Below, piece after piece: positions 1 through 6,462 of a stretch of DNA of 47,510 bases (the first letter of the stretch is position 1; the number at the start of each line of letters is the position of its first letter). Source of the stretch: Clostridiales bacterium DTU086 (lineage in GTDB: Bacteria; Bacillota; DTU086); contig LFTO01000005.1 of NCBI GenBank assembly GCA_001513335.1, forward strand, positions 1 through 47,510, read 5' to 3'. The position numbers and the translations under genes were made by a program. The notes under the pieces are model-generated. The model saw nothing but the letters and a program-made list of their open reading frames with translations. It was not told the DNA's origin and ran no database searches.

Positions 1-818
<818 letters not shown>

Positions 819-851
819 TTAAACGACTGCCTCCCTTGAAAAAAACAATTC

Positions 852-1334
852 TTAAACGCGAATATCCAAAATTTCATATTGGAGAACACCTGCGGGAACC
901 TCAACCTCAACGACACTTCCAATTTTCTGTCCCAACACAGCCTTGCCCACGGGTGATTCGTTAGAAATCTTTTTGTCGGAAGGATCAGCTTCCATGGAAC
1001 CCACTATTTCGTATTCTAAAGTATCCCCGAGTTCCAAGTCTTTCAAAACAACAGTGGACCCCAAGGATACTACTTCAGTTGAACGCTCAGATTCGTCAAT
1101 GATTCGGGCATTCCGCAGCTGCTTTTCCAGGGTTAAAATACGCCCTTCAATAAAAGCCTGCTCATTTTTTGCATCATCGTATTCAGAGTTCTCACTAATA
1201 TCGCCAAAGTCAATTGCCTGTTTTATTCTATCGGCAACTTCTTTTCTTTTGACTGTTTTTAAATATTCTAATTCCTCTTCCAGTTTCTTTAATCCTGCTA
1301 TTGTCAATAAAACTTCCTTTTCACCCACAGCCAT
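852..1334 (-). CDS. greA: Transcription elongation factor GreA
   Basis: [13 protein letters not shown] and [10 protein letters not shown] motifs; adjacent to lysS. Confidence 0.97.
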
Positions 1335-1521
1335 CTCTCCTCGAATTGAAATGCCAAGGACATATTATGAAAAAAATACAGAGTTAATGCCTGTATCCAT
1401 CATAATAAGCACTGTAAACCCGGAAAGCCAGTGCTTCAAGGCTTACAGTGCCGTCCTCCATTATTAAAAAGGTGAGTGCAAAAAAGAAAAATTATTACAT
1501 TAAGTTACCAAGTTAAAAGAT

Positions 1522-1550
1522 ATTATATAGACCTTGATATTTGTTGTCAA
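1522..1550 (-). promoter_or_regulatory. Sigma-A promoter of greA-lysS
   Basis: Perfect TTGACA(1550-1545)-N17-TATAAT(1527-1522). Confidence 0.85.
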
Positions 1551-1601
1551 GAATTAAAGTGTCCGCCGGGGGAATACTACCTTCGTGAAAAAAGAATTCC
1601 C

Positions 1602-2693
1602 CTAGCCAATTCCTGCTGTAGACGCCCCATGGCCGGCGTTATCCCTTATGGAACGGATTTCTTCCGCAGTAACAGGTTTTTCAAAACTCCTAAGCCCTGC
1701 AAGCTTAAAACCGTGTTTTTCCCCCAATTTATAAATCTCATCCACCTGTTCAAAGGTTAGGGACCTGCCGAGAGTATAACTCTCAAACCTGTTTTCCATA
1801 GCCAAAATCATTGTTTCCGCAATACATGCCAGGGTAACGTCAGGCGGGTAACCCAGATTGAGATTGGTTGTTACTTTCCCCGGTACCTGGACCAGACCTC
1901 CTTCTATTACCAAAACATCTTTCCTGGCACCGGCAACCCGAAGAGAAACATCCCGCGGCCGGGCAACGTCACAGACAACACACCCCGGGGGGAGGTCTTC
2001 AGGCTGGATGATATCACCCCCAGAAGACGTCACAGTAATGACTATCTGGGCACTCTTGAGAGCCTTTTTTAGATTATTGGTGATTTTTACTGCCTGGCCT
2101 GTTTGGTGCATAATGCTTCTGGCAAGGTTATCCAGCTTTGTCCTGTCTCTGGCAATCAGGGTAAGGTATTTGCACTCCCTGGAAACCAGATGGGAGCACA
2201 CCGCACCAATGGCGCCGGTAGCACCAATTACAACCACGTGGGCTTCTGCAATATCGATGCCCATTTTAGCCGCAGCCTCCTTAGTACCCTCCATAGCCAT
2301 GGCTACAGTATAACTGTTGCCTGTAGTAACGGGAATTTTCAGCTGCTGCGCTATCGTAATGCCAGCGTCTGCGACTACGGAAGTCATAGCACCAAGGCCA
2401 ACGATACCTGCCCCCGCCTTTTCCGCAACTCTTCCCGCTTTGATAATCTTCTGCACAACGTAATGTTCCGGAAAACTCAGCATCTGTTCTGTTGTCAAAG
2501 GACAGCCGATAAAAATGCCAGAAATAGTCCTGCCCGTTGACTGGGATTTTATACCTTCAATTTTGGAATACTTAAAGGCAGGAAGTCGTGAAAACCATTT
2601 TTCAACAAATTCCCTGGGCAGCCTCTTTGTACCTTTAAACCTGGTTACAATGTCGTTGACATTCATTGGATGTATAATAAACGCAAAATCCAT
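1602..2693 (-). CDS. Acyl-ACP reductase-like NAD(P)-dependent oxidoreductase (COG5322-type; often auto-annotated shikimate dehydrogenase)
   Basis: FAFIIHP, GLGAMTS, TTGNSYT, Rossmann GATGAIG, DVARP, GG, LACIAETMILA and KHGF are collinear with cyanobacterial AAR motifs (LGGFTS, TTGNTHT, GATGDIG, FACFAEAMLL, RHGF). Confidence 0.75.
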   Translation of the reverse strand: MDFAFIIHPMNVNDIVTRFKGTKRLPREFVEKWFSRLPAFKYSKIEGIKSQSTGRTISGIFIGCPLTTEQMLSFPEHYVVQKIIKAGRVAEKAGAGIVGLGAMTSVVADAGITIAQQLKIPVTTGNSYTVAMAMEGTKEAAAKMGIDIAEAHVVVIGATGAIGAVCSHLVSRECKYLTLIARDRTKLDNLARSIMHQTGQAVKITNNLKKALKSAQIVITVTSSGGDIIQPEDLPPGCVVCDVARPRDVSLRVAGARKDVLVIEGGLVQVPGKVTTNLNLGYPPDVTLACIAETMILAMENRFESYTLGRSLTFEQVDEIYKLGEKHGFKLAGLRSFEKPVTAEEIRSIRDNAGHGASTAGIG

Positions 2694-2699
2694 CTTTGA

Positions 2700-3641
2700 T
2701 CAGCCCTCCTGAACTTTCAACCTGGTTGTTGACCACTTCCTGCTAAAATCTACAATCCGCGGGAGGAAACCTATTTTATCCAGCATATTGGAGTAATCTT
2801 CAGGGGAAATGCTGTCTACCGGTTTCTGCAGAAATGCCACCAACAGAGCCTCCATCACATTTGTCCCAAAAGACCGCCCATTAAGTTCGGGCGTGGTGGT
2901 GATCAATTTAGCCGTTCCTGCCTGCTGCAGAATATCTACGTCTTTTTTGGTAACAGTATTCGTGATAATTATTTTTCCATCCAGCCGCTCAGGCATATGT
3001 CTTTTTATGTAGAGAAAGTCCCCGGCAATAATATCCGCTTTCTCGTAGTATTTAAAAAATTCAGGGTTGGGTCTGCTCTCCTGTTTTCCTGTGGGATAGA
3101 TATATTTTGTAGGCAGAGTGCTTACAACAGGTGCCAGCATACGGGCCAGCTTGTCCAGTTTTGCCAGGGAATAAATGGGATAGTCTATCCCCACACTGAA
3201 TATAAGGTCCCCCAAGGTTAGATTTGCCCTGCAGGCTGTTAACTCCTCAGCCATTCCAAAACGATCTACCGCACAAACCAAAAGGACATTGCGCCCCTCA
3301 AAGGATACCTGTCCTGAACTGGCAAGGTACTTGATTACCTTTCTTTCCAGGGTATTTTTTAATCCTGTACCATCAACAATGGGAGTAATCTTCACAGCGG
3401 AAGCCATCTTCCTTCCATCCCGAAGTATATATCTTCTGTTGCCTGCATGAATGTATATGTCAATGCCCCCAATACCGAAGGCATCAACTTTACCATCCAG
3501 CTCTTGCAGGAGGGAAATAGCCCTGGATAAATCTCCGTCCGTACCTATCCTTTCAATCTCAACGGTTTCTCCCATAATTTCTGCTGTTACTTTATGGTTT
3601 CTTTCTGATGCCCCTAGACTTACGCTGACAATTCTCTTCAC
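2700..3641 (-). CDS. Conserved uncharacterised protein ('quinate 5-dehydrogenase'-type annotation), distant paralogue of the neighbouring AAR-like protein
   Basis: GTG start at 3641 with AGGAGG RBS; VSVSLG, DAFGIGGID, PIVDGTGLK and GRSFGTNVMEA motifs. Confidence 0.7.
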   Translation of the reverse strand: MKRIVSVSLGASERNHKVTAEIMGETVEIERIGTDGDLSRAISLLQELDGKVDAFGIGGIDIYIHAGNRRYILRDGRKMASAVKITPIVDGTGLKNTLERKVIKYLASSGQVSFEGRNVLLVCAVDRFGMAEELTACRANLTLGDLIFSVGIDYPIYSLAKLDKLARMLAPVVSTLPTKYIYPTGKQESRPNPEFFKYYEKADIIAGDFLYIKRHMPERLDGKIIITNTVTKKDVDILQQAGTAKLITTTPELNGRSFGTNVMEALLVAFLQKPVDSISPEDYSNMLDKIGFLPRIVDFSRKWSTTRLKVQEG

Positions 3642-3670
3642 AGTCTCGCCTCCTGTTAAAATAAGCCCAA

Positions 3671-4195
3671 TCATTCCATGATATATTTGATGATTTCCCT
3701 AATCTCATCTACTGATACGTACCTGTCGCCCTCAATGGGTGATTTTCCGATTTCTACTCCAATTACTTCTTTGTCAAGGAGAGCCTGACACAGCTTAATG
3801 CGGTAATTTGAACCAATAGTTACGACTATGTCGCAGGTCCTTAAATTTGTGATTATGTTCATGATTGAGTTCAGCAGATCGACACCGCTGGTTCCCTCAA
3901 CAAATTCCCACCTTTCTTTGTCAGTCAACAACAGGGTGTATTCAACACCCTCTTCAACAAGCATCTTCTCCAATTCTTCCTTATTCTCAATGGGAAACCC
4001 AACTACAGCAATTCTCCGCCCTTTGCGTATCTCGCCCAGTCTTTCCAGCCTGGAAATAAAAGGGCGGTCAATATGTAGTCTTTGGGCCACTTCCTGCTGG
4101 GAATAGCCTTTAACCCTAAGTCGGAATATATCCTCAATGATACCAGACACCTTTTCCGTGCTGATGAGTTTATTCCCAATACGTATAATGCGCAT
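3671..4195 (-). CDS. HTH transcriptional regulator (N-terminal HTH, C-terminal alpha/beta domain)
   Basis: ATG 4195 with AAAGGGGA RBS; GYSQQEVAQRLHIDRPFISRLE helix-turn-helix. Confidence 0.75.
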   Translation of the reverse strand: MRIIRIGNKLISTEKVSGIIEDIFRLRVKGYSQQEVAQRLHIDRPFISRLERLGEIRKGRRIAVVGFPIENKEELEKMLVEEGVEYTLLLTDKERWEFVEGTSGVDLLNSIMNIITNLRTCDIVVTIGSNYRIKLCQALLDKEVIGVEIGKSPIEGDRYVSVDEIREIIKYIME

Positions 4196-4566
4196 CTCAA
4201 GTCCCCTTTTTAAGTATTTCCCAAATGTGCACAAAATTGTATACACAAGCCTAGGTAAATTCTACCTCTCCCTGTCCTTCTTTTCAAATCTCCTCCCCGG
4301 AGAATATCAAGGACCTTACCTCAAATTTACATAAAAAGAAGCACGTGGATTACCGTGCCTGTTAAACTCTAATTTATCCGGTTAATTTACCCTGGTATGA
4401 AAAAGGCTTTCCAATGGACTTGCAAAATTTTGTCCAATAGATAATACTTTGAATAATGCTGCTTCAGCAGGCTGATATTCTGCAAAATAAAAAAGTCCCG
4501 TATTGATAATTTCATGTGGAATTATTAATGGTGTTCCAATCGTTGAAACAGTATTCGGAGGATAGT

Positions 4567-5268
4567 ATGGATCCCAGAAAATTTTTTACCGGTCTCAGAA
4601 AAACTTTTCCCTTTATGGTAGGGCTTATACCCTTTGGACTGGCTTATGGGATAATGGGGGCCCAGGCGGGCTTAAATTTAGCCGAAATTATGTTTATGTC
4701 CGTTGTAGTTTTTGCAGGTTCCGCTCAATTTATGGCTGTTGAAATGATCAGTCAAAATATTGGGATTGTATTTATTGCTTTTTCCACCCTCTTAATCAAC
4801 CTGCGGCATATTCTAATGGGGCTGTCTTTATCCCCGTATCTCAGCAGGCTGAGGGCCCGCTGGTTATACATCCTTGCCTTTGGAATGGTGGACGAGACTT
4901 ATGCAGTTACAATAGATTACTATCAAAAGGGTGCCGGGGATTCAGGCAATCCCTATTTCATGCTGGGTTCCTCTGCAGGAATTTATTTTTCCTGGTTACT
5001 AACCTCATTTATTGGGGCTATTTTAGGCAGTTCAATACAGGACCCGTTGGCCTGGGGATTAGATTTTGCCATGCCGGCAACATTTTTAAGCATCCTTATT
5101 CCTCAAATCAAATCCATGAGGATGCTTCTTGTAATGCTGATTTCCGGGGTATCCGCCGTGGCTTTTTTGCTGTTAATTCCCGGAAAGTGGTATATCATTA
5201 TGGCTACCCTTTTGGCCGTTGCAGCAGGGACCACTATGGAAATAGTACAGGAAAGAAGGTCTTCCTAA
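4567..5268 (+). CDS. azlC: AzlC-family branched-chain amino acid exporter, large subunit
   Basis: FAGSAQF, INLRHIL, DETYA and GLDFAMPATF motifs; ATG 4567 after GGAGGA. Confidence 0.9.
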   Translation: MDPRKFFTGLRKTFPFMVGLIPFGLAYGIMGAQAGLNLAEIMFMSVVVFAGSAQFMAVEMISQNIGIVFIAFSTLLINLRHILMGLSLSPYLSRLRARWLYILAFGMVDETYAVTIDYYQKGAGDSGNPYFMLGSSAGIYFSWLLTSFIGAILGSSIQDPLAWGLDFAMPATFLSILIPQIKSMRMLLVMLISGVSAVAFLLLIPGKWYIIMATLLAVAAGTTMEIVQERRSS

Positions 5269-5589
5269 ATGGAAACAAAATATGTAATCTTAATACTGCT
5301 TATGGGATTAGTGACCTATTTAACAAGGGTTAGTTTTTTTCTTTTGTCCAGGAAAGTTAAACTGCCGGATCTGGTTTTCCGGTCCCTGAAATATATCCCT
5401 GTAGCAATCCTGGCAACCTTAATATTTCCCGGGATATTTGTTCCCAATAAAGAATTGGATATTGCCATTACAAACCCATATATCTGGGCTGCCTTAATTA
5501 CCGCTGGCACCTTAATAATCAGTAAAAATTCCCTTGCAGGTATAGTTCTGGGTATAGCCTCACTGGTGGTATTGCGGACAGTGATTTAA
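5269..5589 (+). CDS. azlD: AzlD-family exporter small subunit
   Basis: TYLTR and LKYIPVAILATL; hydrophobic; abuts azlC. Confidence 0.88.
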   Translation: METKYVILILLMGLVTYLTRVSFFLLSRKVKLPDLVFRSLKYIPVAILATLIFPGIFVPNKELDIAITNPYIWAALITAGTLIISKNSLAGIVLGIASLVVLRTVI

Positions 5590-5733
5590 AACACTGCATT
5601 TTAACCCCGGGTTTCTGCGCCTGTCATAACCCAAAAAAACAGTGAAAGAATAACGGGCAGTAATTGTGAATAAATTTCAAGAGCCTGAGGGAAACAGCAA
5701 TAAAAGAAACCAATAATCAAAGGGAGGCAAGCT

Positions 5734-6462
5734 ATGTTTTACGATGAAATTGCCCAATATTACGACCTGATTTTTCCTGCCGGGAAAGCACAGGTAAGTT
5801 TTCTTACGGAAATTGCCGGCAGGCCCCCAAAGAATGTTTTGGATATTGCCTGCGGAACAGGGACATATGCCATTGAACTTGCCAAGGAAGGTTATTCTGT
5901 GACAGCTGTTGATCTAGATGCAGAAATGATAGAGGTATTGAAGAAAAAGACTCTGGACTCTAACCTGGGAACAAAAATTAACCCCATTCAGGGAAACATG
6001 CTGGAACTTCCTCAAAGGCTGAATACCAAATACGATTTAGCCTTTTGCATTGGCAATTCTCTGGTTCACCTGGACGGGGAAAAAGAATTAGAGGAGTTTC
6101 TTTCCGGCATTAAAAGCCTGCTGGTTGACAGGGGACACCTGGTAATTCAAATTATCAATTACGACAGGATTTTGAAAAAAAACATTAAATCCCTCCCTAC
6201 CATTGAAGTAAAGGACAAAGGACTTAAGTTTCACCGCCTGTACCGTTATGACACAAAAATCAATAAAATCCTCTTTAAAACAATTTTAGAGGTACCGGGG
6301 AACGTCATTGAAAATGAAATCCCCCTGTACCCCCTGCTATCCGGTGACCTGGAAACTCTGTTACAAAATAGCGGTTTTACGAATATTCAAGTGTTCGGAG
6401 ATTTTCAAAAATCAGAATTTCAAAAGGACAGCTCTTACAGTTTAGTAGTATGTGCCTCCTAA
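5734..6462 (+). CDS. Class I SAM-dependent methyltransferase
   Basis: VLDIACGTG motif I, AVDLD, CIGNSLVHL; GGGAGG RBS. Confidence 0.88.
   Translation: MFYDEIAQYYDLIFPAGKAQVSFLTEIAGRPPKNVLDIACGTGTYAIELAKEGYSVTAVDLDAEMIEVLKKKTLDSNLGTKINPIQGNMLELPQRLNTKYDLAFCIGNSLVHLDGEKELEEFLSGIKSLLVDRGHLVIQIINYDRILKKNIKSLPTIEVKDKGLKFHRLYRYDTKINKILFKTILEVPGNVIENEIPLYPLLSGDLETLLQNSGFTNIQVFGDFQKSEFQKDSSYSLVVCAS

Follow-up and report, generated by a model that had tools for sequence, protein, structure and literature searches.

A predicted AAR/PigE-type reductase and its Cys-less structural relative in a three-gene locus of Clostridiales bacterium DTU086

We analyzed a 47,510-nt stretch of DNA from Clostridiales bacterium DTU086 (contig LFTO01000005.1, positions 1 to 47,510; hereafter the window), at one end of which three co-directional genes on the minus strand encode a 174-aa helix-turn-helix (HTH) protein, a 313-aa protein that we call the partner, and a 363-aa protein with the features of an AAR/PigE-type acyl-thioester reductase. 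The open reading frame (ORF) map of the window places greA-lysS downstream of these genes, with intergenic gaps of 29 bp (HTH/partner) and 6 bp (partner/reductase) within the set (Table 1). A preceding interpretation, made from the sequence alone without database searches (the sequence-only reading), had described this layout, and the coordinates bear it out. The reductase-partner set is uncharacterized and widespread, and it is common in anaerobic Firmicutes.

Because a perfect consensus promoter precedes greA, the HTH, partner and reductase genes look like one transcription unit and greA-lysS like another. A second promoter-like sequence lies before the HTH gene; such sites are not above chance in the region (7 found compared to 6.5 expected from shuffles), and this upstream site is a candidate only. 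Positions 1-6000 of the window gave no Rfam match at E ≤ 0.1 and thus no riboswitch or leader RNA. The partner and reductase genes are each single-copy in their own genome (2.1 Mb, 98.8% complete).

Table 1. Genes and promoter sequences at the locus (window positions), and positions of the relocated partner genes of other genomes (numbered within the respective locus).
Feature	Position	Strand	Remarks
HTH-type protein gene, 174 aa	3671-4195	minus	First gene of three
Partner protein gene, 313 aa	2700-3641	minus	GTG start; AGGAGG 7 nt upstream
Predicted AAR/PigE-type reductase gene, 363 aa	1602-2693	minus	Third gene of three
greA	852-1334	minus	Downstream of reductase gene
lysS	3-818	minus	Truncated by contig start
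Candidate promoter, TTGAAA-17 nt-TAGAAT	4259-4287	minus	10/12 consensus matches; 64 nt before HTH start codon
Perfect sigma-70 consensus, TTGACA-17 nt-TATAAT	1522-1550	minus	12/12 matches; in the interval between reductase stop and greA, a 267-bp gap (1334 to 1602)
Relocated partner gene, locus L033	5389-6339		
Relocated partner gene, locus L035	5416-6441		
Relocated partner gene, locus L041	5628-6542		
Relocated partner gene, locus L042	5272-6261		

The 363-aa protein matches the NCBIfam PigE model NF053554 at E 1.7e-65, its residues 36-351 falling on profile positions 41-355 of 837, i.e., on the reductase half of the model. It also matches TIGR04058, the model of the cyanobacterial long-chain acyl-ACP reductase AAR, at E 4.1e-35 with 121.7 bits, which is below the equivalog cut-off of 449.7, and the PigE score likewise lies far under the cut-off of its model. 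In the Protein Data Bank (PDB) it finds PigE (4ppm, 2.1e-35) and AAR (6jzq, 7.9e-26), and the reductase profile additionally matches by sequence the terminal amidation domain (TAD) of carmabin-type non-ribosomal peptide synthetases (1.1e-10). Pfam sees just Shikimate_DH in this protein. In the alignment to AAR structures 6jzq and 6jzu, Cys290 falls on AAR Cys294, the position mutated in entry 6jzz (C294S), and the protein further carries a Gly-rich loop (G157-A-T-G160-A-I-G163) and a junction motif (T123-T124-G125). In the family alignment, which we widened with fused forms to 111 rows, Cys290 and Gly163 are each conserved in 110 rows, and Glu293, Gly157, Gly160, Thr123 and Gly125 in all of them. 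The description of this gene in the sequence-only reading as an active-type AAR-like enzyme agrees with the presence of Cys290 and the Gly loop.

The protein resembles AAR (TIGR04058; 6jzq, 6jzu, 6jzy) in whole-length fold, sequence, catalytic Cys, Gly-rich NADPH loop and TTG motif, whereas its score lies under the equivalog cut-off, its host is an anaerobic Firmicute rather than a cyanobacterium, and it is paired with a Cys-less relative and an HTH protein. We searched its genome for the aldehyde-deformylating oxygenase (ADO) PF11266 and found no match at E ≤ 0.01, while the positive control, Synechococcus elongatus, was matched; we therefore rejected a cyanobacterial alkane pathway. Its closest sequence relative is the reductase domain of the PigE/TamH/KecF-type reductase-transaminase fusions (NF053554; 4ppm). 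Unlike PigE, the protein ends at 363 aa with no fused class-III aminotransferase, and none is encoded by the neighboring genes examined (those for the HTH protein, the partner, greA, lysS, AzlC, a methyltransferase, an M20 peptidase and a PALP enzyme); its companion is instead the AAR-fold partner, and we know of no AAR-fold companion of PigE. Since no ADO was found in the genome and no class-III aminotransferase among the neighbors examined, we take the 363-aa protein, from its sequence, to be an AAR/PigE-type acyl-thioester reductase in a new context, outside both characterized pathways.

The partner has no Pfam or NCBIfam match up to E 0.1, and a sequence search of the PDB gave no relative. 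Its family is very large: all 8,000 candidates scored in one search were significant, corresponding to at least 8,000 proteins, and the family comprises 954 representatives at 50% identity. Clusters of this family in the Atlas also come from Chloroflexota and Vulcanimicrobiota, and many homologs are named 'quinate 5-dehydrogenase' by NCBI. We rejected a shikimate or quinate dehydrogenase identity of the partner on three grounds: no family match up to the same threshold, no Gly loop, and structural Z scores with shikimate dehydrogenases (8.6-9.4) that are lower than those with AAR and TAD. A passage in a comparative-genomics paper (PMC9425974) counts among the conserved unknowns of Deinococcus-Thermus a family 'annotated as quinate 5-dehydrogenase', which may be the partner family.

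An AlphaFold2 model of the partner reached a predicted local distance difference test score (pLDDT) of 94.7 and a predicted template modeling score (pTM) of 0.91. Foldseek placed TAD and AAR on top, with query-normalized TM-scores of 0.44-0.51, and all other structures at 0.38 or below. In VIA-align, the best solved match was AAR 6jzq, which superposed on the model over 250 residues, along chain positions 1-344 and across both domains, with Z 13.0 and a root-mean-square deviation of 4.6 Å; TAD followed at Z 12.2, and no glutamate dehydrogenase exceeded Z 11.0. A search of 48,161 chains that did not depend on Foldseek returned TAD (11.7) and AAR (11.1) as ranks 1 and 2, with glutamate dehydrogenase at Z 10.2, shikimate dehydrogenase at 9.4 and AmiC (1pea) at 7.6. 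TAD (9e4s, 9e4u, 9e4x), the top or second structural match depending on the search, shares its two-domain AAR-like architecture with the partner. The two differ in that the partner is a free-standing protein and lacks the Cys and the Gly loop; according to passages in the TAD preprint, TAD keeps the invariant Cys and binds NAD, and there is a cluster of free-standing homologs whose function is given as unknown (bioRxiv 10.1101/2024.10.28.620694). Because the lead of AAR and TAD is modest, the fold alone gives just a broad class, and from the model we would only say that the partner is an amino-acid-dehydrogenase-like two-domain protein, nearest to AAR/TAD.

Plain sequence comparisons of the partner with the reductase gave no signal. 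The best BLASTP E value was 1.4, profile Smith-Waterman scores, each set against 60 shuffled controls, had z values of -0.1 and 0.5, and hhalign of the plain family alignments reached a probability of 0.28%, with global and sub-optimal runs also returning nothing. An unbiased window test placed 2/12 and 3/12 top windows in the collinear band, which block-shuffled controls reached in 135/300 and 69/300 cases. We then widened both families alike by adding 63 fused homologs before hhalign. In contrast to the plain families, the widened ones gave a single collinear alignment of partner residues 85-293 on reductase residues 119-330 (185 columns, E 0.024, probability 2%), with Asn261 on Cys290 and Glu264 on Glu293. 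The profile-profile check suggested with the sequence-only reading thus gave an alignment for the widened families only.

That reading had also matched seven pairs of short strings between the two proteins. All seven exist, at collinear positions. The widened-profile alignment, into which these pairs had not been fed, recovered five of them (blocks 2, 3, 5, 6 and 7) and approximately a sixth (block 4). In profile space, with about 355 placements per block, the ranks of the blocks are 1, 1-2, 2, 31, 1, 1 and 5; as the blocks were picked after the fact, we do not count these ranks as a test.

Two further details of the sequence-only reading, the missing Gly-rich loop of the partner and an Asn in place of the catalytic Cys, hold across the partner family. 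After the first Rossmann strand, the family has S-A-x-D-R-x-G compared to G-A-T-G-x-I-G in the reductase. Asn261 is kept in 157 of the 164 rows of its alignment, and no column contains more than 30% Cys. Other positions are conserved to a similar degree or more strongly: R31, G91 and D145 are invariant (164/164 each), and K223 (151), R256 (145) and E264 (154) nearly so. At the domain junction, where the window partner has P-I-V-D-G, the partner domain of a fused homolog from Marinobacter carries I-P-V-T-T-G, the very motif of the AAR family, and T-T occurs at the junction columns in 28-30 of the 164 rows. This bridging motif and the widened-profile alignment tie the partner to AAR specifically. 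We regard it as confirmed that the partner is an ancient AAR-fold relative without the catalytic Cys or the Gly loop, with the likeness at the level of structure. The degenerate AAR-like paralog of the sequence-only reading is supported in that the partner has the same two-domain fold without either feature; 'paralog' can mean just a very old structure-level relative here, not a recent duplicate.

To survey the three genes, we used 301 genomes drawn evenly from the phylum of the window organism, with detection cut-offs of E ≤ 1e-30 for the reductase and E ≤ 1e-15 for the HTH protein. The partner was found in 227 genomes, the reductase in 197 and the HTH protein in 194. All three genes are present in 169 genomes and none of them in 73; 27 have partner and reductase only, 25 partner and HTH gene only, and six the partner alone, while the reductase occurs without the partner in one genome and the HTH gene without it in none. 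In other words, the partner accompanies the reductase in 196 of 197 genomes and the HTH protein in 194 of 194. Among the 112 genomes for which both top matches were listed, the reductase gene lies immediately downstream of the partner gene on the same strand in 97, and among the remaining 15 are cases of a broken contig, of a second copy or of genuine translocation. Of the 30 best loci, 29 have the HTH gene directly upstream of the partner gene, and 29 have the reductase gene downstream of it.

The partner and the reductase also occur as one polypeptide. Long homologs (72 in total) comprise 61 partner-then-reductase fusions, whose linkers are only a few residues long, two reductase-then-partner fusions, and nine that are of another type or unclear. 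In a tree of 164 partner domains, which left out these nine, the two fusion types form separate clades with support of 100 each, pointing to at least two fusion events, one of them old and diversified. The large fusion clade holds all Marinobacter examples sampled, and the fusion is fixed across this genus. The Marinobacter-type fusion matches 199 genome stretches; nearly all of the 80 fusion loci kept come from named Marinobacter isolates or metagenome-assembled genomes (MAGs), the others being one Hahella MAG and two Pseudomonadota MAGs. Because the fused genes are found in about 80 named genome records, assembly or annotation errors are an unlikely explanation. In Marinobacter the fusion is a stand-alone gene from which the housekeeping neighbors are absent, and its neighborhood offered no pathway clue. 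A further homolog, P0302 (762 aa), has a BioF/Kbl/serine-palmitoyltransferase-like 2-amino-3-ketoacid synthase N-terminal to a partner-family domain. Neighborhood analysis and phylogenetic profiling, which had been proposed as checks of the sequence-only reading, are thus in its favor: the adjacency, the co-occurrence and the fusions in both orders (63 of the 72 long homologs) support functional coupling of partner and reductase.

The 174-aa protein scores 22.0 bits with Pfam HTH_3 (E 1.7e-4; cut-off 23), and Atlas clusters of its family carry HTH_3 on 13-41% of their members. In an AlphaFold2 model (pLDDT 91.3), residues 8-57 resemble the DNA-binding domains of resolvase, NtrC1 and DeoR (Z 5.7-6.5), and residues 58-174 are predicted to form a flavodoxin-like alpha/beta domain, which has generic matches only (Z up to 6.7, TM-score < 0.5). 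Homologs are 45-65% identical over the full length, the C-terminal domain being as conserved as the HTH part, and N71, E94, R95, D122, S129 and R132 are invariant. The simplest reading is that the HTH protein is probably a ligand-sensing regulator; alternatively, it may be a third component of the system. For the dedicated regulator of the sequence-only reading, the position of the HTH gene is borne out, and the regulatory role is probable.

We propose that the three genes encode a two-protein thioester-to-aldehyde reductase module with its own DNA-binding regulator in one operon, an interpretation to which we give an even chance of being correct. By homology to AAR and PigE, the reductase would take the acyl group of a thioester (acyl-ACP, where ACP is acyl carrier protein, or acyl-CoA) onto Cys290, and the acyl-enzyme would then be reduced with NAD(P)H to release the aldehyde. 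Passages in two sources describe a ping-pong mechanism for AAR and revise the role of the PigE N-domain to that of a reductase (PMC10829540; bioRxiv 10.1101/2024.10.28.620694), the chemistry proposed for PigE in one of them being conversion of a thioester to an aldehyde (PMC10829540). As Asn replaces the Cys and the Gly-rich loop is absent, the partner would be incapable of acyl-thioester reduction chemistry. It would rather work with the reductase, presumably in physical contact, as a non-redox subunit that binds the substrate, the carrier or an effector. The HTH protein would most likely sense a small molecule through its alpha/beta domain and control the operon.

Pairs in which an active enzyme acts together with a relative that is itself inactive are known from prozymes, i.e., dead-paralog activators, and from plant CER1/CER3. 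What these share with the proposed module is an idea, and they have no sequence or family link to the window proteins. The WAX2-type Pfam family, through which the sequence-only reading had drawn the CER1/CER3 comparison, is absent among the matches up to E 0.1 for both partner and reductase, leaving that comparison as analogy.

A more far-reaching version of the proposal is possible, and we put it forward tentatively, considering it doubtful as a whole. Here, the partner would be an obligate activating or substrate-presenting subunit, making this the first bacterial 'prozyme'-type reductase of the AAR family, and it would stand at the center of a system of three proteins for the production and sensing of an aldehyde, probably lipid-derived. 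Most anaerobic spore-forming Firmicutes would need this aldehyde, and in Marinobacter the fused form would make it.

For the proposed module itself, hints that the substrate or product may be a lipid are weak and come from single cases. On a metagenome contig (L125, 258-7090), one strand encodes a DAGK-type lipid kinase, an NAD_binding_4 ('male sterility') reductase, a partner-reductase fusion, a 342-aa protein and a GT2 glycosyltransferase, and an SCP2 gene directly follows one translocated copy of the partner gene.

We separately considered a strict link to sporulation and rejected it. Spo0A_C was found in 253 of the 301 genomes, and three families in which every sampled genome has Spo0A lack the partner (f5, 6/6; f23, 4/4; f25, 3/3). 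Several partner-bearing genomes, in turn, have no Spo0A match.

Several observations weigh against the proposed module. The structural lead of AAR and TAD over glutamate dehydrogenases is just 1-2 Z units, and the sole significant sequence alignment of partner and reductase is the one with E 0.024. The partner, and not the reductase, is the hub of the phyletic pattern: of the 227 genomes that have it, 31 show no detectable reductase and 25 of these keep the HTH gene, and whole families hold partner and HTH gene without the reductase. When five of the genomes lacking a reductase were searched again with the cut-off relaxed to E 0.001, four still gave no match. Around the fused forms, no HTH gene lies within 7 kb (0/81 loci). 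In at least four genomes (G052, G166, G047 and G130) the partner gene has been relocated, each time beside an L,D-transpeptidase (YkuD) gene. In a further genome, G073, the third gene of the set (L040, 7178-8251) has diverged strongly, with 30% identity over the Rossmann part only, no Pfam match and a partly replaced Gly loop. The invariant polar residues of the partner are no less fitting for an enzyme or a specific ligand binder than for a scaffold. Finally, we found no activity, substrate or expression data for any member of the set. Literature searches gave no paper on the partner/reductase pair or on the Marinobacter fusion.

Because 31 of the 227 partner-bearing genomes have no detectable reductase, the partner must have a role that needs no reductase. 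The enzyme/pseudo-enzyme pair of the sequence-only reading is supported as to functional coupling; the partner is not a mere accessory and may itself catalyze a reaction or bind a ligand. The strongest alternative follows this line and makes the partner an enzyme itself, catalyzing a different non-redox or differently cofactored step of the same pathway, for instance one that supplies the activated acyl substrate or acts on the aldehyde. Fusion and adjacency would then reflect substrate channeling between two active sites. The conserved R31, D145, K223, R256, N261 and E264, together with G91, would suit such an enzyme, as would the partner's place as hub and its occurrence without the reductase; P0302, moreover, joins the partner domain to a BioF/Kbl-type synthase, another thioester-using enzyme. 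In the model, the second Rossmann strand ends at D145, which we take to be the position where NAD-type enzymes of this fold bind the adenosine ribose. However, the partner lacks the catalytic Cys and the Gly-rich loop and matches no family of known activity, and we consider this explanation rather unlikely, if the most serious of the alternatives.

The distribution of the HTH gene bears on a second alternative, in which the partner is a sensor or allosteric module that binds a metabolite and signals to both the reductase, of which it would be a separate partner or a fused regulatory domain, and the HTH protein, in the way that AmiC acts with AmiR. The HTH gene is never found without the partner gene (0/194), the 25 genomes holding just these two genes would be explained, and the fold class of the partner is common to periplasmic-binding-protein and LacI-type ligand domains, including AmiC. 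Those fold matches, however, lie well below AAR and TAD, the fused lineages lack a nearby HTH gene, and 27 genomes have partner and reductase with no HTH gene; we judge this alternative improbable.

That the genes are merely neighbors through housekeeping synteny (birA-bioY-coaX-dus ... greA-lysS), with a generic Rossmann-type likeness and no functional link, would fit the conserved neighborhood, the failure of ordinary sequence tests and the closeness of glutamate dehydrogenases to AAR in Z score, but this is highly improbable. It is strongly disfavored by the two fusion types, which arose independently and of which one has diversified over a large clade and is fixed in a cultured genus of another phylum, away from any housekeeping neighbors, by the co-occurrence of partner and reductase, and by the persistence in the genome of relocated partner genes.

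Among the genomes with a relocated partner gene, the HTH and reductase genes remain together beside greA-lysS in G052, G047 and G130, and G166 has a transposase-like gene upstream of the reductase gene. A GerM-type gene lies near the relocated partner gene in three of the four genomes, once together with cotJABC and an SCP2 gene. In four genomes of one genus (G007, G058, G100 and G238), the HTH and partner genes are hundreds of kb to 2.4 Mb apart, and each of these genomes has two weak reductase matches of about 1e-51 to 1e-53.

We noticed that the partner and reductase ORFs of the window lie in the same frame, with just a TGA and two codons between them (2691-2702), and that loss or read-through of this single stop would yield the fused form known elsewhere. 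Judged from match coordinates, this shared frame is not kept in relatives. In five relatives (L034, L038, L039, L043 and L044), dus directly precedes the HTH gene, which is not the case in the window, and in two of the five birA, bioY and coaX lie further upstream of dus. A dus gene (L057, 4855-5832) is also located 1.2 kb from a Marinobacter fusion, which may be chance. In many genomes the partner gene is 3.5-4.8 kb from a contig end, and the present window begins inside lysS; assemblies seem to break just past lysS, and our guess for the cause is a repeat, for example an rRNA operon.

Reductases of the AAR type are familiar from the synthesis of alkanes in cyanobacteria and from routes to pigments and alkaloids. 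In roughly two thirds of the sampled Firmicute-phylum genomes, such a reductase is encoded among housekeeping genes and is accompanied, in all but one of the genomes that have it, by a related protein without the catalytic residues. That protein belongs to a very large family with no Pfam model and a misleading database name. As Marinobacter is culturable and genetically workable, its fused form makes the question of function directly testable. An answer may also reveal how anaerobes make aldehydes, a route so far missing, and from these alcohols, amines or modified lipids.

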